Assembly (NCBI GenBank): GCA_039809105.1
Contig: JBDHUJ010000001.1
Coordinates: 1-59,375 of the forward strand
Source: Candidatus Saccharimonadales bacterium
Lineage (GTDB): Bacteria > Patescibacteriota > Saccharimonadia > Saccharimonadales > UBA4665
DNA: 59,375 bases
Reading direction: 5' to 3'
The translations under genes and the position numbers were made by a program. Of this stretch, positions 7,336-16,142 are shown piece by piece; position 1 is the first letter of the stretch, and every line of letters starts with the position of its first letter. The notes beneath the pieces were generated by a model, which saw only the letters and a program-made list of their open reading frames with translations, did no database searches and was not told the origin of the DNA.

Positions 7336-7354
7336 GCACCTGTAGCTCAGCTGG
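7336..7354 (+). repeat. Exact 19-nt copy of the 5' end of tRNA-Arg (integration scar candidate)
   Basis: GCACCTGTAGCTCAGCTGG is identical to 7450-7468. The downstream sequence does not fold as a tRNA. Confidence 0.85.
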
Positions 7355-7449
7355 CCAAGGCGAAGCCGGCAGAGAACTACAACGGAACGCTCTATCCAAA
7401 CTATCATTAGCTAGATAGAGGCACTTAACAATGTATGTCGCCAAATTAT

Positions 7450-7526
7450 GCACCTGTAGCTCAGCTGGATAGAGCGTTGGCTTGCGGAGCCAAAGGTCGT
7501 AGGTTCGAATCCTGCCAGGTGTACCA
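7450..7526 (+). tRNA. tRNA-Arg (anticodon GCG by manual fold), CCA encoded
   Basis: Acceptor GCACCTG/CAGGTGT, D arm GCTC..GAGC, anticodon stem TTGGC/GCCAA with loop TTGCGGA, T arm GTAGG-TTCGAAT-CCTGC, then ACCA. Confidence 0.88.
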
Positions 7527-9134
7527 TGATTGAATTAGAGCCTCGTAAGAGGCTTTTTTCATCTGTTGGGGCAAGGTTCCGACGCGGACTAACTCCGCTT
7601 CCATGGCTGCCTTAGTATCCACCACTGGCTGTAAGTATTTGATGGGCTTGATGAACACCTGACCGTCCATGTACACCAGCCGCTCGTTCAGCCCTGCTAG
7701 CACCGCTCGCTTGCGTTCGTCGCTGTCGCTCTCAAAGTCCTCTTTGGCATAGCGGGCGAAGTTAAAGAACTGGCGGGCACGTTCACGGGCTTGGCGGCTG
7801 CGTTCCTGCTGTTTAGTGCTGCTGGTCTGTGGGTCTTTGAGCTGCCGCTCTAGCTTGCTGCTCTTGGCGTCAAAAAACGCCTCGCTACAGCGTCCCGTGT
7901 AGAGCATCCGCTGTAAGCCGTATAGCTCAGTCTCAACGGCTTTTATAGCCTTACCTTGAGCCTTGTGCAGCTTCTCTAGGTCGGCTTCTTGCTCGTCGTT
8001 CCACTCGTTCAGATACTTACAGGCATACTGAAAGAAGTCGTCCATAATGGTGTACTTCTTGAGCTCGTCACGGATGAGCTTATTCATGGACGCTGGCTTG
8101 ATTTTCTGCTTATTAGAGCACGTGTAGTCCTTGCGGCGGTCTGTGCAGTAGCAGTACTCAAAGTATTGGCTCTCACCGTTCTTGTAGTGGCGTACCTTGC
8201 GGGCATAGGTGATTATGTAGCCACACTCGCCACACTCCACCAGCCCACGGTAAACATTGAAATAGTCGTACTCTGCCATCACGGTAGGGCGGTGGCGGTT
8301 ACTGACAGCTATCAGGCTCTGTACTCGGTCAAACTCCTCAGGCGTCACCATAGCGGGGTGGTTGCCGTGGTAGAGCTTGCCGCCGTAGATGAAGTCGGCT
8401 CGGTAAAACGGGTTATGAAACATGGCATACACGCCTGCCACGCTCAACGCCATGCCGCCCGTCTGCTTCCGCTGCACGGTCTTAAGCCCTAGCTCCTTGT
8501 CGGCTTTTCGGGCTATCTCGCTAGCGTTGTACATGCCGCTGAGCATCCAGTCCCACATTTTGCGGACTAACGCCCAGCGTTCAGGGTCGGCAATAATGAT
8601 TTTGCCTTGTAATGGGTCGTGGAAGTTTACATAACCGATGGGCGGTACGCCTGGGAACCAGCCCTTGTCAGCACGGCTGTACATACCACGGCGGACGTTC
8701 ACCATCAGCTCACGGACGTACTGGTTGCTCATGCTAGCCTCTACGCTAAAGATAATAGCGTTGTCAGATGGCAGGTAGACTTTATCGTTAGTGATGATGC
8801 ACTTAATCAGCCCGTCTTGTAAGAGCTGTTGTAGTACACCGCTTTCGGCTGGGTTGCGGGATAGGCGGTTAATCTGCCAGCAGATAATGGCGTCAATCTC
8901 GCCGCGGCGGATACGCTTAATCAGGCGGTCAAATTCTGGTCGGTTGCCTGGCGTTTTCGCCGATTTTTCCTCTTTGATGATATTAGCTTTTTTCAGCTTG
9001 ATGCCCAGGCTGGTGGCTTTCTTGCTCATGATGCCTACCTGGTCGCCGATGGACTGTACCTGCTTGCCTTTGTCCTCGGTGGATTTGCGGGCGTATAGCC
9101 CTGCGTTTAGTTCTCTGTAATTAACTTCGGTCAT
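7461..9134 (-). CDS. Large serine recombinase (integrase)
   Basis: N-terminal resolvase fold (GLYARKSTEDK, DAIICWQINRLSRN), recombinase domain, Cys-rich zinc ribbon (CGECGY...YCYCTDRRKDYTC) and a coiled-coil tail. The last ~30 codons are antisense to the tRNA terminator and tRNA-Arg. Confidence 0.9.
   Translation of the reverse strand: MTEVNYRELNAGLYARKSTEDKGKQVQSIGDQVGIMSKKATSLGIKLKKANIIKEEKSAKTPGNRPEFDRLIKRIRRGEIDAIICWQINRLSRNPAESGVLQQLLQDGLIKCIITNDKVYLPSDNAIIFSVEASMSNQYVRELMVNVRRGMYSRADKGWFPGVPPIGYVNFHDPLQGKIIIADPERWALVRKMWDWMLSGMYNASEIARKADKELGLKTVQRKQTGGMALSVAGVYAMFHNPFYRADFIYGGKLYHGNHPAMVTPEEFDRVQSLIAVSNRHRPTVMAEYDYFNVYRGLVECGECGYIITYARKVRHYKNGESQYFEYCYCTDRRKDYTCSNKQKIKPASMNKLIRDELKKYTIMDDFFQYACKYLNEWNDEQEADLEKLHKAQGKAIKAVETELYGLQRMLYTGRCSEAFFDAKSSKLERQLKDPQTSSTKQQERSRQARERARQFFNFARYAKEDFESDSDERKRAVLAGLNERLVYMDGQVFIKPIKYLQPVVDTKAAMEAELVRVGTLPQQMKKASYEALIQSWYTWQDSNLRPLAPQANALSS
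7539..7559 (+). terminator. Rho-independent terminator of tRNA-Arg
   Basis: AGCCTC-GTAA-GAGGCT followed by TTTTT. Confidence 0.75.
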
Positions 9135-9297
9135 TGGTTTATCTCCTTATATCAAAAGGACGGCTTGGTTGTTGACACGGTAGACTGCACAAAGCAATTT
9201 TCCGATACCAAGCCGCCCTTTCGGTGCGGAAATAAAAACGCTCCGTGCGTTATTATCTATCGTGTCAACAGTTACTATTATAGTCCTAAGGTGCTAA

Positions 9298-9501
9298 CTA
9301 CTCAACAGCGGTGCTATCAGTAGTATCGTCAGTTGTACTCTTAACAACTTTGTGTATGATGTGCGTGAGCGGCTGGATGGTCGCCACGAACTTGATGAGG
9401 TCTAGAGCGTCACGCTCGGCTTCCTCGTCGGTCAGGTCGGTGCCGTAGTGTTTGCGGTGCAGTGCCCGAAACTCGGCTATGGCTTCATCGCTTAGTCTCA
9501 T
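9298..9501 (-). CDS. Hypothetical small acidic protein (island)
   Basis: 67-aa ORF co-oriented with the integrase. No recognisable motif. Confidence 0.45.
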   Translation of the reverse strand: MRLSDEAIAEFRALHRKHYGTDLTDEEAERDALDLIKFVATIQPLTHIIHKVVKSTTDDTTDSTAVE

Positions 9502-9643
9502 GGCTGAACTCCACGGACAATGCCACCGTTATAGCTACCGCTACAAACAAGTACCCCTACATTAAACAGAACCTTTATATAGGTATATGTAACCCTAATA
9601 TAGATACCTTTATAGAGAGATACTATATAGCCCTGTAAGGTTC

Positions 9644-10030
9644 TCATTGGTGGTACCCCCTGGGCTGTTGGCGGGTGCTGTAGTCCTGGCTGGCTGGGAA
9701 TAGTCCTTGTGGGCTATTGCTCGGCTCAGTCGGCGGCGGTGCGATGGCGGCGTCTGTGTCGTCGTTCCGTTCCGCCTCTCTGACCGCTTCTAGGCACGCC
9801 TGTTCAATTTCCTGCCACAACGTGCAGCTCTTATCAAACTCAGGCGTCGTCAGCCACTTACCCTTTACATTGGTGGCGGGCGGTTGCACCCACCAGCCGC
9901 TCATATTCCTATCGGAACGAACGGCACGGAAGCCATCTATGTATAGCCCCAGGTCAAGGACTGATACCTTGAGCCTGTAGCCATCCTTGATGGCAGCCCT
10001 GACCTCCACGCTGATGGAGTGTATTGTCAT
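9644..10030 (-). CDS. Hypothetical protein (island)
   Basis: 128-aa ORF. The beta-rich N-terminal half (ISVEVRAAIKDGYRLKVSVLDLGLYIDGFRAV) faintly resembles SpoVG-like folds. Unverified. Confidence 0.45.
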   Translation of the reverse strand: MTIHSISVEVRAAIKDGYRLKVSVLDLGLYIDGFRAVRSDRNMSGWWVQPPATNVKGKWLTTPEFDKSCTLWQEIEQACLEAVREAERNDDTDAAIAPPPTEPSNSPQGLFPASQDYSTRQQPRGYHQ

Positions 10031-10165
10031 AGGCAGTTCTCCTTATGAAAAGTCCCCCGACGGAATGGCTATCTGTCAGGGGACTATTTAAGCCATTCCA
10101 CCTCTTATTCAATAGGAAAAACACCCATAAAACGGGTGCTATTTAAGGTTCGCTTAAGTGACTGG

Positions 10166-10735
10166 CTAAAACTGCTTCTTGTATCTGTTGTAGTAACGCT
10201 CCAGGCTATCCGCGTCGCCATACTGGTTATTTGAGCCTTTGTAGCCAGGAAGCTTGCCGTTGCTGTAGAGCTTAAAGATTGCGGGGAACGTCATGCCATG
10301 CTGACGGCACTTGAATACGGCATATAGCAACGACGGGTTCTCTGGCGGCTTACGCTTGGTCGGCACGACAGTCGTCGGGAATAGCGTATCCCGTAGGCTC
10401 TCAAAACGTTGCCACTCTTCTAGCAACTCGGCTCTAGTAGTAGTCGGCTCAAACGTGATACTGAACTGCTTAGCGTCAGGGTCAAACCTCATGTTAGTAG
10501 TTTTAGTCTGATTTTCCAGGTACAGCGGCAACATGAATAAGTTGATGTCGGCAACACCAATTAGGTAGCTCTTAGCCAGGCTCCGCTTATACCCCTCAAT
10601 CTGCTTTGGCGTGCTGTTAGGTCGCTTTTCAAGCTCAGCCAGCACTCGTATAGCTCGCTTGAAGTCGGCGTCGTGGTAGACGTGGTACACATGCCAGTCA
10701 TGGGCAGATTTCAGTCTTTGCGTGTTGCTAGCCAT
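10166..10735 (-). CDS. Hypothetical protein (island)
   Basis: 189-aa ORF, co-oriented, with no recognisable motif. Confidence 0.5.
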   Translation of the reverse strand: MASNTQRLKSAHDWHVYHVYHDADFKRAIRVLAELEKRPNSTPKQIEGYKRSLAKSYLIGVADINLFMLPLYLENQTKTTNMRFDPDAKQFSITFEPTTTRAELLEEWQRFESLRDTLFPTTVVPTKRKPPENPSLLYAVFKCRQHGMTFPAIFKLYSNGKLPGYKGSNNQYGDADSLERYYNRYKKQF

Positions 10736-10765
10736 TCCACTAAGAATGGTAGCACTCTAAAATGC

Positions 10766-11155
10766 TTACGCGGTAGCCCCGCTCAAGTCCACGTTCAGCG
10801 TTACGACTGTGGGTGTTGCGTCAGGGCGTTGCAGTAGCATGTTGTACGCCTTCATGGTCATTTCCATGGCTTTGAGCTTAATGATGGTTGGTTCGCTGTC
10901 GTCGTTAATAATAGCTGTTAGCTCAGCCATAATCTGTTCAGGCGATATTGCTGTAGTAGCCATTTGTCCGATGTTTTCCGATAACCAGTCAGGCTGTAGG
11001 TGGTTGAAGTTGCGGGCAGTCTGTATGGAGTAGCCAGCAGCTAAGGCACTTTGGTATGAGTTACCGAACGTCGGGCTAGCGGGGTCATGGTAGCCGTGCA
11101 AGTACTGGCTCTGGCGGGGCGTAAGGGCTGTTGCTTTTGTTTTGATACTTTTCAT
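10766..11155 (-). CDS. Phage terminase small-subunit-like HTH protein (Terminase_2 type)
   Basis: LTPRQSQYLHGY...GNSYQSALAAGYSIQTARNFNHL matches the usual TerS N-terminal HTH pattern (LTpkQ..F...Y...GN...Aa..AGYS..tA). Confidence 0.55.
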   Translation of the reverse strand: MKSIKTKATALTPRQSQYLHGYHDPASPTFGNSYQSALAAGYSIQTARNFNHLQPDWLSENIGQMATTAISPEQIMAELTAIINDDSEPTIIKLKAMEMTMKAYNMLLQRPDATPTVVTLNVDLSGATA

Positions 11156-11223
11156 GTTTACTCCAGGCTCGTTACCTCTGAATAATTATAACCATCCCTT
11201 TACGATTTAGATATACTGTAGAT

Positions 11224-12684
11224 ATGAATACAGCAGCTACATCATCCAAGAAACAGCTTAAGCCAGCACCTGACGCACCCCTAGGGGTCAAATACGCCCT
11301 GACTGTACCACAGTCGGTACTGTTTGCAGACCTTAGCTTACAGGGCAATTTACGTGAGTATTTTGTTGAGGCGATGGGCTTGGATTACGAACCTGCTTAT
11401 ATCGCCATTGACGCTGGCGGGGCTATGAGCTGGAACTATGACAATGACACCGTATTTAACACCGCCTTCACATCAGACCGCTCTATTGCTGACGCTGTAA
11501 CCGCTTTTATCGCCACCATGGGCACCACCGCCCGTAAGCTTGACCGCCGTAGCACGCTCGGTGTAGCAGCTCTCAGGCGTCAAGGTAACGCTGACGACGT
11601 TTTAGCCGACTTGCAAGAGTTCTGGCACGCTTACAAACTGCACATGACAAGCTTATTTACCTTTTGGAATGCAGAGGCTCTACTAGGCAAGGCGATTGCT
11701 GATGAGGTACAAGCGGCTGGGCTAGACGCTGACCAGGCAGAGCTAGACAAGTTCATAAAGTCACGGGAAACAAACCAGTTTGTACGAGAACGCCGCCTGT
11801 TTGAGCGACTGGTGCAGCGATTTGCTGGCAGTGAGCCAGTCACAAAGGAAAATGCCACACCAGAGCTTATCGCCGCGTTACAGCACCATGCCCGTGAGTT
11901 CAGCTTCTTACTGACGCCGTTTAACCTTGGTAATAAGCCTACGGCTGACGCCTTACTAGAGCGGGTTGCTGAAGTGCAGAGCTCGCCTACCACCGAAGCA
12001 GAGCCTAAGCTGCCAGACCTGCCAACGACACCCCAACTCAAGAAGCTTATAGACCTGCTGCAACAGCTCACGTTCTGGAAAAATGAGCGGTTAGACGTAC
12101 TGTCTATGGCTGATGCTCGCATGGAGCTACTGTATCAAGCTGCCGCCGAAGTGCTGGACATACCGCTGAACACACTATTTGCCATGACGTGCTCTGAAAT
12201 TGAGCAGTCACTTGCAAAAGGTGCAGTAGCTGTAGACCAAGGCGTACTCTCTAACCGCCTACAGACTTATTGCCTCATTCTTTCTGAGGGTACTATTGAT
12301 TTCTACCAGCCCTCAGGGCAGCCAGCTAAGCAAAGTGCTATACCACAAGCTGAGATAGGTGCCGAGCTACAAGGCGTGGTAGCTTCTAAGGGTATTGCCA
12401 GCGGCACCGTCAGAGTTATTGAAAGCGATGCTGACCTTGCAGCCCTACAGTCAGGTGATATTCTCGTTACCACGATGACCCGCCCTGAGTATGGGGCAGC
12501 CCTAGACCGAGCGGCAGCCTTTGTGACTGATGAGGGCGGTATGCTATGCCACGCTGCCATCATATCCCGTGAGATGGGCAAGCCATGTATCACGAACACT
12601 GAGTTTGGTACAAAAGTTTTACGTACTGGTATGGCTGTGACGGTTGATGCTGACCGAGGCGTCGTAACTATTGATAAGCTATGA
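11224..12684 (+). CDS. PEP-utilising-enzyme mobile (phosphohistidine swivel) domain protein lacking an ATP-grasp
   Basis: C-terminal ILVTTMTRPEYGAALDRAAAFVTDEGGMLCHAAIISREMGKPCI follows a roughly 350-aa helical region. Its stop overlaps the next start (ATGA). Confidence 0.78.
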   Translation: MNTAATSSKKQLKPAPDAPLGVKYALTVPQSVLFADLSLQGNLREYFVEAMGLDYEPAYIAIDAGGAMSWNYDNDTVFNTAFTSDRSIADAVTAFIATMGTTARKLDRRSTLGVAALRRQGNADDVLADLQEFWHAYKLHMTSLFTFWNAEALLGKAIADEVQAAGLDADQAELDKFIKSRETNQFVRERRLFERLVQRFAGSEPVTKENATPELIAALQHHAREFSFLLTPFNLGNKPTADALLERVAEVQSSPTTEAEPKLPDLPTTPQLKKLIDLLQQLTFWKNERLDVLSMADARMELLYQAAAEVLDIPLNTLFAMTCSEIEQSLAKGAVAVDQGVLSNRLQTYCLILSEGTIDFYQPSGQPAKQSAIPQAEIGAELQGVVASKGIASGTVRVIESDADLAALQSGDILVTTMTRPEYGAALDRAAAFVTDEGGMLCHAAIISREMGKPCITNTEFGTKVLRTGMAVTVDADRGVVTIDKL

Positions 12685-15011
12685 GCTCGCTTGTCCGAGA
12701 CTTGCATGACGTAACGGCGGCTGACCGTGCCGCTGTCGGTGGTAAGGCGGCTTCACTTGGTGAGCTGCTAAAGCTCGGCGTACAGGTACCGACTGGCTTT
12801 GTTATTACGACTAAGGCATACGGAACCAGCGTCAGTGGACAGCTTGCAGATGAAATACTAGCCAGCTTTGATAAGCTCGGTGCCGAACGAGTAGCCGTCC
12901 GCTCGTCAGCGGTCGCCGAGGATGCAGCGGCAGCTTCATGGGCTGGTCAGCTAGATACGTACCTCAACGTAAAACGTGCTGGGCTCTTACAAGCTATTGC
13001 CGACTGTTGGCAGTCTATAGAAAGTGACCATGCCAAGGCGTATGCCGAGAAAAACAACATACAGCAATCAGAGCGAGCAGTTGCGGTGGTGGTTCAAGCG
13101 ATGGTGGACGCTGATACAGCGGGCGTATTGTTCACCGCTAACCCTGTTACTAACGACGTGAGCCAGTGTGTCATAGAAGCAGTGTACGGGCTTGGCGAGT
13201 TGCTGGTGCAAGGTGCTGTCACGCCTGAAACATTTATTGTCACGAAAGATACAGGAGCTGTTGCCGAACACACACCACATCGTCAGCGAACCAAGCTAGC
13301 GTATAAAGACGGCAGCAATACTGAGCTGCCGCTGACCGATACTGAGACAAGTGCTGAGATTTTACAATCAGCTCAAGTCTCAGAACTTGTAAAACAAGCT
13401 CAGATAATTGAGCAACACTACGGCAAGCCGCAAGATATTGAGTGGGCATTTTCTGGCAAGAAGCTGTTTATTGTTCAGTCCCGTGCGATTACCACTATCA
13501 GTACTGCCAGCAGCATAGAGTGGGCAACGACGGTTGCTCGCCGTCACACGCCCCTATTTCTAAGTCTCGCTGTCTCAGGGCAAGATAGTAAACTCATTAA
13601 ACAACAGACTGGCTTACCAATATCTTTTACCCATATACGGCGGAATGGTTTAGCGTTCCAATTTGATAAACAAGAGTTGGCAGCCGCCAGAGCGGTGGTG
13701 CATGCAGCCGTTGAGAAAGACGGGCTGACTTTCTTTGAGACATACGCTGACCGCTGCTACCAATCATGCCAGAAGTTGCTAGAGACCGCCGAAAAAGTAG
13801 CCCAGACACCGTTAGCCTCATCACCTGAGGCAGCTAAGAAGCAGTTGCAGCCTTACTTTGAGGCGGCAGTATCACACGCCAGCCATTTACTAGTGATGAT
13901 ACTAGTGCAGTTTGAGCTAGAGGATTTTCTGAACGCCTTTGTAGGCGGCAAGATTACTGATAAGAAACACTCTGAAAAAGTAGTTGCGGCACTTAAGATG
14001 GCGACTGAGCGTACCCATGAAGTACTTAACGCCAGAGGACTATTAGTGCTCGGTCAATTAGTACAGGAAGCCGTCCCTGATTATAAAAAATGGATTACGA
14101 CAGACCCTGACGAGCTGAGTTTCTGGAACGCTAACGAGTACGCTTACATCTGGGATAGTATCGCTGACTTTACGGGCACGTATGGCTGGATGGGACGGAT
14201 GTACTACGCTGGCGACCCCATAACCTTGAATGATGCAATCATAAGATTACAAAACGTCCTGCGTGAGAGCTGTGCGAAAGAACTAGAAGCGATAGACGCC
14301 CATCGTATCCGGCAGCTAGCCGAGCGGAAACAAGCTATTGCGGCACTCGGCAATAATAAAGAGGCAAAGTTGCTGGCTGAAACCGTTGCCCGCTATATGT
14401 ATCTGCGAACCTACCGCCTTGACGTGTTCTTTATGGCTCATGAACGCATGATAGACATGCTACAGAATGTTGCTCGCCTCTTAGGGCTAGCGGACGTGCA
14501 AGAGCTTATTTATCTTAGCTGGCAAGAAGTTACTGCTGGGCTAGAGGGTAAGCTATCCGCTCAAACCTTACAAGCCGCTGCCAATGAACGCCGATACGGT
14601 TACGAGATGCTCTCTATGGCTGGTAATACTGAATGGGCGGCAAGTAAAGTTAATACAGCCGCCAACGTTACCGATACAGCCGTTACTAGCCTAAAAGGAG
14701 TGACGGCTAACATTGGCAACCGTCAGGGACAGGTACGACTTGTGCTAGATGATAAAGCCATGCAAGATATGCAGCCAGGGGAGGTACTTGTTACCACCAT
14801 GACTACGCCAAGCCTTATGCTGGCAGTTGAGAAAGCTGGAGCTATAGTAACCGATGAAGGCGGCATGCTTTGTCATGCTGCCATTGTCAGCCGTGAGTTC
14901 AATATACCTTGCGTAATAGGCACCGAGACCGCTACCAAGTCTCTCAGGACTGGCGATACTGTAAAAGTTGAGGCTAGCAAGGGGCTTGTCTCCGTACTGG
15001 AACGAGCATAA
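12681..15011 (+). CDS. PEP synthase/PPDK-like phosphotransferase with rifampicin-phosphotransferase-type architecture (ATP-grasp + middle domain + His swivel, no TIM barrel)
   Basis: PPDK_N motifs VGGKAASLGEL, RVAVRSSAVAEDAAAASWAGQ, AVVVQAMVDADTAGVLFTANP and DIEWAF..LFIVQSRAIT. C-terminal VLVTTMTTPSLMLAVEKAGAIVTDEGGMLCHAAIVSREFNIPCV. Confidence 0.85.
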   Translation: MSSLVRDLHDVTAADRAAVGGKAASLGELLKLGVQVPTGFVITTKAYGTSVSGQLADEILASFDKLGAERVAVRSSAVAEDAAAASWAGQLDTYLNVKRAGLLQAIADCWQSIESDHAKAYAEKNNIQQSERAVAVVVQAMVDADTAGVLFTANPVTNDVSQCVIEAVYGLGELLVQGAVTPETFIVTKDTGAVAEHTPHRQRTKLAYKDGSNTELPLTDTETSAEILQSAQVSELVKQAQIIEQHYGKPQDIEWAFSGKKLFIVQSRAITTISTASSIEWATTVARRHTPLFLSLAVSGQDSKLIKQQTGLPISFTHIRRNGLAFQFDKQELAAARAVVHAAVEKDGLTFFETYADRCYQSCQKLLETAEKVAQTPLASSPEAAKKQLQPYFEAAVSHASHLLVMILVQFELEDFLNAFVGGKITDKKHSEKVVAALKMATERTHEVLNARGLLVLGQLVQEAVPDYKKWITTDPDELSFWNANEYAYIWDSIADFTGTYGWMGRMYYAGDPITLNDAIIRLQNVLRESCAKELEAIDAHRIRQLAERKQAIAALGNNKEAKLLAETVARYMYLRTYRLDVFFMAHERMIDMLQNVARLLGLADVQELIYLSWQEVTAGLEGKLSAQTLQAAANERRYGYEMLSMAGNTEWAASKVNTAANVTDTAVTSLKGVTANIGNRQGQVRLVLDDKAMQDMQPGEVLVTTMTTPSLMLAVEKAGAIVTDEGGMLCHAAIVSREFNIPCVIGTETATKSLRTGDTVKVEASKGLVSVLERA

Positions 15012-15296
15012 GCCGCCTGGAAAGAGACAGCCAAACATTATAGCTTTCGCTATATATTATAGATTTGCGATGGTACCAACAAAAGGCACCACAGGCGGGG
15101 GCATGGCGGGAAGTTCCAACGTTGTACACAAAAATTGCGTAAACGCCCACGCCGCCGCCCGTGGTGTCGTCTGAATTAAGCTGTTACTATACCTATATCA
15201 CCTTGAATGAGAGTTACAACTTCTCTAACCACTGTGTACCAAAGAGATTTAATTAGTAGACGTCCGAACGGCGTCTATTTTGCTATTATTAAAAGT

Positions 15297-16142
15297 ATGA
15301 AAGTTGAACTTATTGGATCTGGCGGCTGGGATGGATTGCCTTCGGTATTTTGTAGGTGTTCGGTGTGCCAGGAGGCAAAGAATAATCTTAGTTCAAAAAA
15401 CCGCCGAACCAGACCCCTGCTAAAGATTAGTGGGCATAGTGAGAGCTTTTGTCTTGATATTGGTCCTGACTTTCGAGATCAATCCTCTCGTTTTGATTTG
15501 GAAGTAGATACTTTTTTTGTAAGCCATTGGCACTACGACCATCTTTTTGGAATTTATGAACTTGGGGCGTGGTTTGGGCTCAAGCTTAATAAGAAACCAG
15601 TCGTTTATTGTTCGCGGGGAACAGAAAAGTATATTCAGGAGCACATGGGGTTTATGGACTTGGATATACGAGTTCTAAATGCTTATGAATCAGTACAGAT
15701 TGAGGGAGTAACTGTAATACCAATTCCCGTATATCACATGCGCTCACGAGATGAGGAAAAAAGTACGAATGATCTGGATACACTTGGCTTCATCATAGAT
15801 GATAAACAAACTAAGATCGCCTATCTCGCAGACTACTATAGGCTACCTGAAAAGACTCAGGAACTTGTTAGTCAGTGCGATTTGGTAGTTGCCGATGGAA
15901 CATACTTGCTTGAAGATCAATATCCAAACGAAGCACTTCGTAATGCCTTCAAAGAGTACAGCGATCCAGACCATATGCATGGAAACGACATTCTTGCTTT
16001 TACTAAGTCGCTAGAGATGCCGATTGTATTTCATTCAATCACTCATTTGCCCGAAATGAGTCATGATAGCATGCAACAAATGATGCCCAATAATCACGTT
16101 ATTGGCTATGATGGCATGGATATTACAAGCTTACTTAAATAA
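15297..16142 (+). CDS. MBL-fold phosphodiesterase, PhnP/PqqB-like
   Basis: MKVELIGSGGWDGLPSVFCRCSVCQ...NRRTRP (Cys/zinc motif as in PhnP) and HWHYDH. ORF track start is 15207; ATG 15297 is preferred by analogy with PhnP N-termini. Markedly AT-rich. Confidence 0.78.
   Translation: MKVELIGSGGWDGLPSVFCRCSVCQEAKNNLSSKNRRTRPLLKISGHSESFCLDIGPDFRDQSSRFDLEVDTFFVSHWHYDHLFGIYELGAWFGLKLNKKPVVYCSRGTEKYIQEHMGFMDLDIRVLNAYESVQIEGVTVIPIPVYHMRSRDEEKSTNDLDTLGFIIDDKQTKIAYLADYYRLPEKTQELVSQCDLVVADGTYLLEDQYPNEALRNAFKEYSDPDHMHGNDILAFTKSLEMPIVFHSITHLPEMSHDSMQQMMPNNHVIGYDGMDITSLLK

Follow-up and report, generated by a model that had tools for sequence, protein, structure and literature searches.

The window considered here, that is, the whole 59,375-nucleotide stretch of DNA from a Candidatus Saccharimonadales bacterium, contains two overlapping open reading frames (ORFs), termed ORF1 and ORF2, that probably encode a small-molecule dikinase of the rifampicin phosphotransferase (RPH) type in which one ATP-grasp serves two acceptor modules. 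On the best reading, the pair represents a shared-grasp version of the two-component dikinase, a kind already known from PpsAB, CreHI and HpeHI. The two genes are the cargo of an island that carries a serine recombinase and sits at the 3' end of a tRNA-Arg gene, the host probably being a Saccharibacterium, as judged from the GTDB loci with the closest homologues (L011-L013 and L016), which belong to Saccharibacteria and Saccharimonadales. The most novel element is a pattern seen across the Candidate Phyla Radiation (CPR) and DPANN archaea, namely, one grasp accompanied by many modules, of which the island carries the minimal form. The pair is made up of the following parts:

11224..12684, + strand: ORF1 ("module A"), 486 amino acids (aa), with a helical substrate domain (approximately aa 1-370) and a His-swivel domain, and no ATP-grasp
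12681..13514, + strand: ATP-grasp of ORF2, aa 1-278, assigned by Pfam (PPDK_N), alignment of RPH residues and Foldseek
13515..15011, + strand: "module B" of ORF2, a helical substrate domain and a His-swivel domain (Pfam, residues 698-768)

In the 776-aa product of ORF2 (12681-15011), Pfam detected PPDK_N (residues 50-279; E 4e-72) and PF00391 (residues 698-768; E 9e-24). The Pfam scan revealed no PEP-utilizers_C TIM barrel (PF02896) in this protein, nor in the product of ORF1. Mutagenesis of RPH has shown Lys22, Arg117, Thr136 and the swivel His to be essential (PMC4844700), and these align with K22, R74, T93 and H732 of ORF2, the last being the catalytic residue encoded at nt 14874-14876. With a structural model of ORF2 (pLDDT 91.7) as query, the best Foldseek match was full-length RPH (RPH-Lm, 5hv1; E 8e-35), with the grasp superposing on the isolated ATP-binding domain of RPH (5hv6; TMt 0.78, 2.4 A) and on HpeI (9goj; TMt 0.61). 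As modeled, ORF2 would be a complete RPH-type small-molecule dikinase, in which a helical substrate domain is flanked by an ATP-grasp and a His-swivel.

For ORF1, Pfam returned PF00391 alone (residues 409-479; E 1e-23), with the catalytic His443 being encoded at nt 12550-12552. The swivel motif TDEGGMLCHAAI is common to both proteins. The ORF1 and ORF2 sequences overlap in an ATGA at 12681-12684, a junction that is kept in two of the related loci considered here (numbered L001 onwards), namely, L010, where it is identical over 30 nt, and L001. When the AF2 model of ORF1 (pLDDT 89.8) was used in a Foldseek search, RPH-Lm was the sole match to extend beyond the swivel (5fbu; E 4e-16, TMq 0.56), all other PDB matches covering the swivel only. 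As such, the ORF1 helical domain is predicted to resemble the rifampicin-binding domain of RPH. The C-terminal ~490 residues of ORF2 are paralogous to ORF1 over its entire length, though diverged, with 33% identity over the last 228 aa and with corresponding linker motifs. Within the helical domain, conservation is highest in a motif of the presumed acceptor-site region, which reads FWKxERLD in ORF1 (284-291) and YLRTYRLD in ORF2 (573-580), and its Arg is kept in 61% of 346 modules. This motif sits where Arg666, Glu667 and Lys670 of RPH should align, a placement that is approximate and not at the level of residues.

An earlier sequence-only reading of this DNA had described three ORFs, including a third that encodes a metallo-beta-lactamase (MBL) family hydrolase, had assigned ORF2 to the RPH type rather than to a metabolic PpsA, and had portrayed ORF1 as a grasp-less swivel protein translationally coupled to ORF2. 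All three ORFs, with their domains, were found again in the ORF list and by Pfam, the ATGA overlap was verified as well, and the full-length RPH-Lm match and the missing TIM barrel are in line with the type proposed for ORF2, just as the lone PF00391 match and the overlap are with the description of ORF1. That reading was also right in finding the two swivels similar; it went too far in limiting the likeness to them, since the helical middle of ORF2 is a paralogue of the N-terminal part of ORF1. It had further allowed for ORF1 being a decaying duplicate. Comparison with the L010 counterpart yielded a dN of 0.056 and a dS of 0.597 (dN/dS ~0.09), and ORF1 is therefore under strong purifying selection and not decaying. 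Neither the catalytic His nor the motif around it varies within the ORF1 family, and the His is likewise invariant in the module B family.

The genomic settings of relatives offer insight into where ORF1 would obtain its phosphate. The module A family consists of proteins of ~480 aa that occur either stand-alone or fused to a grasp. In L001, L004, L014 and L017-L019, stand-alone relatives of module A are translationally coupled to a gene encoding only a grasp (~275 aa), which lies downstream of an ORF1 relative of 68% identity in L001 and upstream of the module in L004 (Solirubrobacter). In P0004 (757 aa) and in L011, module A is instead fused behind the grasp. Among the relatives examined, stand-alone members of the ORF1 family were always adjoined by a grasp gene. 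The module B family presents both forms as well, stand-alone with a grasp and grasp-fused. The strict two-gene form, grasp plus substrate/swivel protein, is found in L001, L004 and L009, and three saccharibacterial loci (L012, L013 and L016) combine module A, another swivel module and a single grasp. The grasp-only gene of L001 terminates right after the grasp domain and shares 61% identity with the ORF2 grasp, to which it is sister in a neighbor-joining tree. In that tree, saccharibacterial grasps group by lineage, regardless of the module that accompanies them.

In PpsAB, CreHI and HpeHI, recognized as split RPH homologues, the swivel His resides in a separate substrate subunit and is charged by a grasp subunit via a transient complex (PMC12167813). 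Considering this two-component precedent together with the need of the ORF1 family for a grasp, the most economical proposal is therefore that ORF2 serves its own module B in cis and ORF1 in trans. The grasp would be shared because the ORF1 family depends on a grasp, because the L001 grasp is sister to that of ORF2, and because no locus contains more than one grasp, this being so in all 159 related loci pooled, where the swivel modules number up to 11. It is thus very plausible that, as the sequence-only reading had put forward, one grasp charges two modules, with the charging of ORF1 in trans being proposed by analogy.

The chemistry of such a system can be outlined by homology, given how the dikinase mechanism has been established for HpeHI, PpsAB and RPH (PMC12167813, PMC4844700). 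Overall, ATP and substrate would be converted to AMP, inorganic phosphate and phospho-substrate. The ORF2 grasp would bind ATP, and the swivel His would attack the beta-phosphate, yielding pyrophospho-His and AMP, after which the gamma-phosphate would be hydrolyzed. The swivel would then swing back to its own helical domain and phosphorylate a hydroxyl group of a small molecule. In this scheme, His732 of ORF2 would be charged in cis, and His443 of ORF1 would be charged in trans by the ORF2 grasp in a transient complex, as in PpsAB, CreHI and HpeHI. Two substrate specificities would result from the divergence of the helical domains. As a best guess, and a speculative one, the acceptors might be two different phenolic or antibiotic-like small molecules that are inactivated or trapped, an activity that could be relevant to an episymbiotic lifestyle.

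Several observations weigh against this interpretation. The neighborhood of the pair contains no catabolic, resistance or transport genes. L001 represents a version without module B, such that module B is dispensable or was lost there; a tblastn search of L001 found no module B remnant, so that module B may have been lost in L001 or gained in the window. The combination of module A with a grasp-module B fusion was seen solely in this lineage, where the only near-identical relative of the pair lies on a 2.5-kb contig (L010) that carries just the first 47 codons of ORF2. No relative of more than 58% identity to module B was found, and a metagenome scan for the module A plus grasp-module B arrangement returned no relative of more than 48% identity. 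In ORF2, the Glu that lies beside the conserved Arg of the acceptor site is replaced by Tyr. Finally, the partner of ORF1 could be a grasp encoded beyond the 59-kb window, within which there is no second grasp.

In two other loci, grasp-fused members of the family were seen among genes of primary metabolism. P0004 (L002, 9156-11429) lies between the trp operon and genes for transaldolase, transketolase (tal/tkt) and the shikimate pathway, and P0122 (L005, 9049-11250) lies upstream of a Trp_repressor-like gene and the his operon. Such housekeeping contexts may hint at a metabolic role for some family members.

The number of modules per grasp was considered in two samples. The first, anchored on modules, consisted of 79 loci from species-representative genomes, mostly of Patescibacteria/CPR and DPANN archaea. 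At least two swivel modules were present in 60 of these and at least five in 31, with a maximum of 11; one grasp was seen in 42 loci, none in 37 within the stretch of sequence covered, and more than one in no locus. The second, independent sample was anchored on the grasp and comprised 80 metagenome loci. A single grasp was present in 79 of them, and two to four swivel modules were found in 10 of the 36 loci that span at least 8 kb. As the module-anchored sample is biased toward arrays, the true frequency lies between the figures from the two samples. Within an array, the genes are co-directional and either overlap or lie close together, and the paralogues are ~35% identical. The catalytic GGxxxH is retained in 321 of 324 swivel domains.

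Tandem arrays of 7-11 helical-plus-swivel paralogues, each with at most one PPDK_N grasp gene, were found in L021, L027, L028, L033, L035, L046 and L049, as well as in L055, L068, L071, L073, L074, L085 and L087. The array modules fall into two size classes, ~340-400 aa and ~440-520 aa. In four further loci, one grasp and several swivels are joined in a single giant ORF:

L070, 797-12103: 3,769 aa, one grasp and eight swivels
L029, 188-10318: 3,377 aa, one grasp and several swivels
L026, 11896-19026: 2,377 aa, one grasp and several swivels
L030, 5399-10819: 1,807 aa, one grasp and several swivels

No published account of one-grasp/many-module arrays was found in the literature, which offered only generic counts of rph-like genes; a CPR resistome screen, for instance, merely counted rph-like hits (PMC8651080). 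It is tempting, if tentative, to view the pair in the window as the minimal mobile form of a general CPR/DPANN design, in which one grasp charges, in trans or in cis, a battery of diversified swivel/substrate modules, each phosphorylating a different small molecule. This could represent a cheap and expandable way for genome-reduced episymbionts to trap or neutralize host-derived metabolites or toxins, yet such a general design is somewhat less likely than not to be correct as stated.

ORF1 and ORF2 belong to the superfamily of RPH-like small-molecule dikinases. The sequence and structural features of this superfamily are present, namely, a PPDK_N grasp with its nucleotide-phosphate ligands in ORF2, and, in both proteins, a T/SxxGGxxxH swivel lacking the regulatory Thr and a helical domain like the rifampicin-binding domain of RPH, with no TIM barrel. 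The two proteins belong to none of the characterized families, since their scores against models of RPH, phosphoenolpyruvate (PEP) synthase, PigC/RedH and PRK08296 fall far below the respective cut-offs. ORF2 follows the domain order of RPH (5FBS/5FBT/5FBU, 5HV1), that is, grasp, helical domain and swivel, with Lys22, Arg117, Thr136 and the His all conserved, and RPH is the sole PDB match for the helical domains of ORF1 and ORF2. Identity to RPH is, however, 17-20%, the substrate domain of ORF2 is shorter (by ~100 aa) and diverged, and RPH is a single polypeptide, whereas ORF2 is coupled to ORF1 as a further module without a grasp. In terms of the NCBIfam RPH models NF041857 and NF000283, ORF2 scored 285 bits (cut-off 999) and 223 bits (cut-off 1700), and ORF1 scored 56 and 49 bits.

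The two-component enzymes HpeHI, CreHI and PpsAB, in which grasp and substrate-swivel parts are split and pyrophospho-His transfer occurs in a transient complex (PMC12167813), provide the closer parallel in terms of organization. ORF1 is comparable to HpeH/PpsA and residues 1-278 of ORF2 to HpeI/PpsB, with L001 corresponding to the exact two-gene form. By contrast to those enzymes, the grasp here is fused to a second acceptor module, resulting in one grasp and two swivels, and ORF1, at 486 aa, is shorter than HpeH/PpsA (~600-650 aa). The two-component phenolic dikinases share ~45% identity among themselves, yet ORF1 presented no full-length match of the PRK08296 type, with models NF006149-NF006153 covering the swivel only (69-90 bits, as compared to cut-offs of 578-730). 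Moreover, aromatic-catabolism genes are not linked to the pair, and the host is probably an episymbiotic CPR bacterium.

The sequence-only reading had stated that no system of this composition was known. With two-component RPH-homologous dikinases having been described (PMC12167813), that statement holds only in part.

PEP synthase and pyruvate phosphate dikinase (PPDK) possess homologous grasp and swivel domains, and it is for these two domains that they provide the best sequence E-values. They differ from ORF1 and ORF2, which lack the TIM barrel, in the position of the swivel (C-terminal here, rather than central) and in the regulatory Thr that precedes the His, in place of which Leu is found here (GGMLCH). 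Against PEP synthase and PPDK models, ORF2 scored 347 bits (cut-off 598) and 330 bits (cut-off 740), with matches to the grasp and swivel only. With no PF02896 and with scores below the cut-offs, ORF2 is not a PEP synthase for which annotation of the TIM barrel was simply lost, as the sequence-only reading had considered. The prodiginine ligases PigC and RedH are alike in having a grasp, a central domain and a C-terminal swivel, and their NCBIfam scores are similar to those of the RPH models, yet amount to ~280 bits relative to cut-offs of at least 1300, and no pigment-biosynthesis context is found here.

The pair lies in an island of 7.7 kb (~7527-15233; GC content 0.51) that contains a serine recombinase, three small ORFs and the two dikinase genes. 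This agrees with the sequence-only reading, which had placed the pair on a mobile element. The island and its right flank include the following features in addition to ORF1 and ORF2:

7450..7526, + strand: tRNA-Arg, anticodon GCG (ARAGORN), the left boundary of the island
7461..9134, - strand: large serine recombinase (integrase), identified by Pfam (Resolvase, Recombinase, Zn_ribbon_recom) and by PHROG 95 (integrase; E 1e-56)
9644..10030, - strand: small ORF of 128 aa, conserved in the L093 element (tblastn, 31% identity to L093 1942-2235)
10166..11155, - strand: two small ORFs of 189 and 129 aa (ORF list)
11157..11186, + strand: promoter-like site 5' of ORF1 (consensus match only)
15234..15241, + strand: copy of the tRNA-Arg 3' end, GTGTACCA, the putative right junction of the island (repeat alignment)
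15255..15279, + strand: terminator-like hairpin between ORF2 and the MBL gene, conserved upstream of the MBL gene in relatives
15297..16142, + strand: PhnP-like MBL hydrolase, a resident flanking gene (Lactamase_B_2; loci of relatives)

The 3' end of tRNA-Arg, GTGTACCA, lies at 7519-7526, and its second copy at 15234-15241 extends to ~12/13 nt with one indel. Homology between the window and MBL loci that lack an element begins at 15236-15248. No long att direct repeats were found in the window, just the 8-13 nt copy of the tRNA 3' end, a length that is acceptable for a serine integrase. All three domains of the recombinase are present and intact in Pfam. Thus, an intact recombinase, a location adjacent to a tRNA, a junction repeat, and relatives in which the site is empty or differently filled were all found, as expected of an integrative island. 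The empty site is known from other strains (L092 and L094) and not from the species of the window itself, and mobility of the island is deduced from sequence. The 128-aa ORF found no match in Pfam or PHROG, while the 129-aa ORF presents weak similarity to the N-terminal part of a small terminase subunit (phrog_51; E 1e-4, residues 2-48 only). In the promoter scan that yielded the site upstream of ORF1, the number of sites was not above that expected from shuffled sequence.

Because of the limits of homology to L010 and the setting of the pair's relative in L001, the dikinase pair behaves like an accessory cassette in variable regions. In L010 (1-2469), a tRNA-Arg 92% identical to that of the window is followed by a ParE/YafQ toxin-antitoxin pair, which stands in place of the recombinase module, and then by ORF1-ORF2, with ORF1 being 90% identical to its counterpart in the window; DNA homology between the two starts just 26 bp upstream of the ORF1 ATG. 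In L001 (1-21461), the ORF1 relative is found among toxin-antitoxin modules (PhdYeFM/PIN, MazE/PIN and BrnT/BrnA) and several transposases.

Upstream of the island, the 5' end of tRNA-Arg is repeated exactly over 19 nt at 7336-7354, 114 bp upstream of the intact tRNA, and is followed at 7385-7396 by an inverted fragment of the D-arm (CGCTCTATCCA). These may be the scar of an earlier rearrangement or integration at tRNA-Arg.

The sequence-only reading had counted the MBL gene as a member of the operon and as cargo of the element. The ORF as annotated spans 15207-16142 (Lactamase_B_2; E 1e-20 in Pfam), yet Met31, at nt 15297, is most likely the true start, since homologues are ~280 aa long and since the terminator-like hairpin lies inside the annotated N-terminal extension. 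Because the copy of the tRNA 3' end and the conserved hairpin separate it from ORF2, the MBL gene lies outside the island; it is not part of the dikinase system but rather a resident gene beside the insertion site. Its closest homologues (72-82% identity) are found at loci without any dikinase. In L092 and L094, the order is ATPase, tRNA-Gly, tRNA-Arg, a duplicated scar of the tRNA 3' end and the MBL gene. L093 encodes an identical MBL protein and presents the same downstream genes, but here the MBL gene is immediately preceded by an inserted element. This element (~6.8 kb) carries a recombinase 46% identical to that of the island and at the equivalent site, with its recombinase end abutting the tRNA 3' end, together with a homologue of the ORF at 9644-10030 and unrelated cargo (ORFs of 311 and 298 aa). 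The junction scars or element lie at ~9728-9760 in L092, 3344-3998 in L094 and 1-6900 in L093. The tRNA-Arg/MBL junction thus varies among strains whose MBL proteins are identical, and is a recurrent integration hotspot.

The earlier statement that the MBL gene lies in AT-rich DNA was correct, with a GC content of 0.41, as compared to 0.50-0.52 for the pair and 0.555-0.575 for the flanks, and because of the difference from the surrounding host DNA the gene may itself be of foreign origin. Its assignment to the PhnP/PqqB type held in terms of motifs (HxHxDH and the N-terminal CxCxxC of the Zn site) and of best-scoring NCBIfam models (PRK02113, PhnP, GPMC-system MBL and PqqB-type), although the scores (72-74 bits) are below all cut-offs (272-386). 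For the PhnP model TIGR03307, the score was 72 bits and the cut-off 272; phn genes are not nearby. Homologues of the MBL protein were seen to have weak precomputed matches to PF23023 (Anti-Pycsar Apyc1), and one of these a weak match to class-II cAMP phosphodiesterase. In a direct Pfam scan of the MBL protein from the window, neither was detected, with PF23023 being absent even at E values up to 10.

Could the dikinase pair and the PhnP-like MBL nonetheless act jointly on one substrate, for example a nucleotide or small molecule on which they make and cleave a phosphodiester or cyclic phosphate? The three genes are adjacent in the window, and in the distant locus L019 (6483-10363; a metagenome-assembled genome (MAG) of the Oscillospiraceae) genes for a grasp (279 aa), a module A-like protein (486 aa), a PhnP-like MBL (274 aa) with the CxCxxC motif seen in that of the window, and a VOC/glyoxalase-family protein follow one another directly in that order. 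This was the sole other dikinase-MBL adjacency in a sensitive hidden Markov model search, occurring as one of 89 loci with a module relative and in none of the 80 grasp-anchored loci; given that the MBL model is a broad PhnP-like one, the probability of such adjacency by chance is ~0.07 (a rough estimate). L019 is a single case and may be due to chance. Together with the tRNA 3'-end copy and hairpin that intervene, the dikinase-free relatives beside tRNA-Arg, the different cargo of the related element in L093, and the GC content of 0.41 for the MBL gene as opposed to 0.51 for the island, this makes a three-gene system very improbable. About equally improbable is an anti-phage or other conflict system. 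The pair does lie on an island, and its closest relatives (L001 and L010) do lie among toxin-antitoxin modules and, in the former, transposases, yet none of the three proteins was matched by PADLOC, the surrounding genes include no nuclease, NTPase or sensor partners, and more distant relatives are found in housekeeping contexts (trp and his operons). Viral-contig matches are essentially to the generic swivel only. None of the 80 matches listed reaches into the N-terminal 60% of the module, the swivel alone is covered in all except four of them, and many come from giant-virus MAGs; the module family is hence not phage-borne. The nucleic acid or nucleotide substrate and the anti-phage role that the sequence-only reading had entertained are thus disfavored.

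An actual rifamycin phosphotransferase, with ORF2 and perhaps ORF1 conferring resistance on the Saccharibacterium to rifamycins from actinobacteria, is highly unlikely. Structurally, both proteins match RPH-Lm best, the NCBIfam RIF_Ptrans_rph model matches ORF2 (E 1e-84), and rph-like genes are listed in CPR resistome screens (PMC8651080); however, the scores (285 of 999 and 223 of 1700 bits) are equaled by those from the models of PEP synthase, PigC and RedH, only the grasp and swivel show sequence similarity, overall identity being 17-20%, and the substrate domain is ~100 aa shorter than that of RPH. Also very improbable are protein-directed or regulatory kinases akin to mycobacterial VadK, or a cryptic PEP synthase/PPDK of central metabolism. 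PPDK-derived proteins can indeed turn into regulatory kinases, as did VadK (PMC13400623), but ORF1 and ORF2 have an RPH-type ligand-binding helical domain, none being reported for VadK (PMC13400623; a comparison by description only). Although PEP synthase models give the best grasp and swivel E-values, and a family-A fusion protein is encoded between the trp operon and the tal/tkt/shikimate genes, the PEP/pyruvate TIM barrel is absent and the scores are below every cut-off. Somewhat more credible, if still unlikely, is that ORF1 is not charged by ORF2 but is instead a non-catalytic partner or regulator that heterodimerizes via its helical domain, or an ATP-independent phosphotransferase that shuttles phosphate between small molecules. 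HpeH alone can move phosphate from a phospho-product to another substrate and dimerizes via its helical region (PMC12167813), and ORF2 is self-sufficient on paper. The invariance of the catalytic His and motif in the ORF1 family, the strong purifying selection, and the grasp gene that always adjoins stand-alone relatives all argue against this.

Should the grasp of ORF2 indeed charge ORF1, this would be the first case known to us of a complete RPH-type dikinase lending its nucleotide domain to a second acceptor. The concept of the two-component dikinase, so far comprising PpsAB, CreHI and HpeHI and aromatic catabolism, would then widen to one engine with several tools. The pipeline labels "PEP synthase", "PEP-utilizing enzyme" and rph-like resistance gene are none of them justified by the present evidence. 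The two-module version in the island, at 3.8 kb, is small enough for direct expression and assay. In the CPR and DPANN, arrays of 5-11 diverged and catalytically intact modules are accompanied by at most one grasp per locus. Given the extremely reduced genomes of these organisms, this unstudied array family probably represents a significant investment, and the arrays may bear on how episymbionts handle host-derived small molecules, be it scavenging by phosphorylation or the inactivation of antibiotics.

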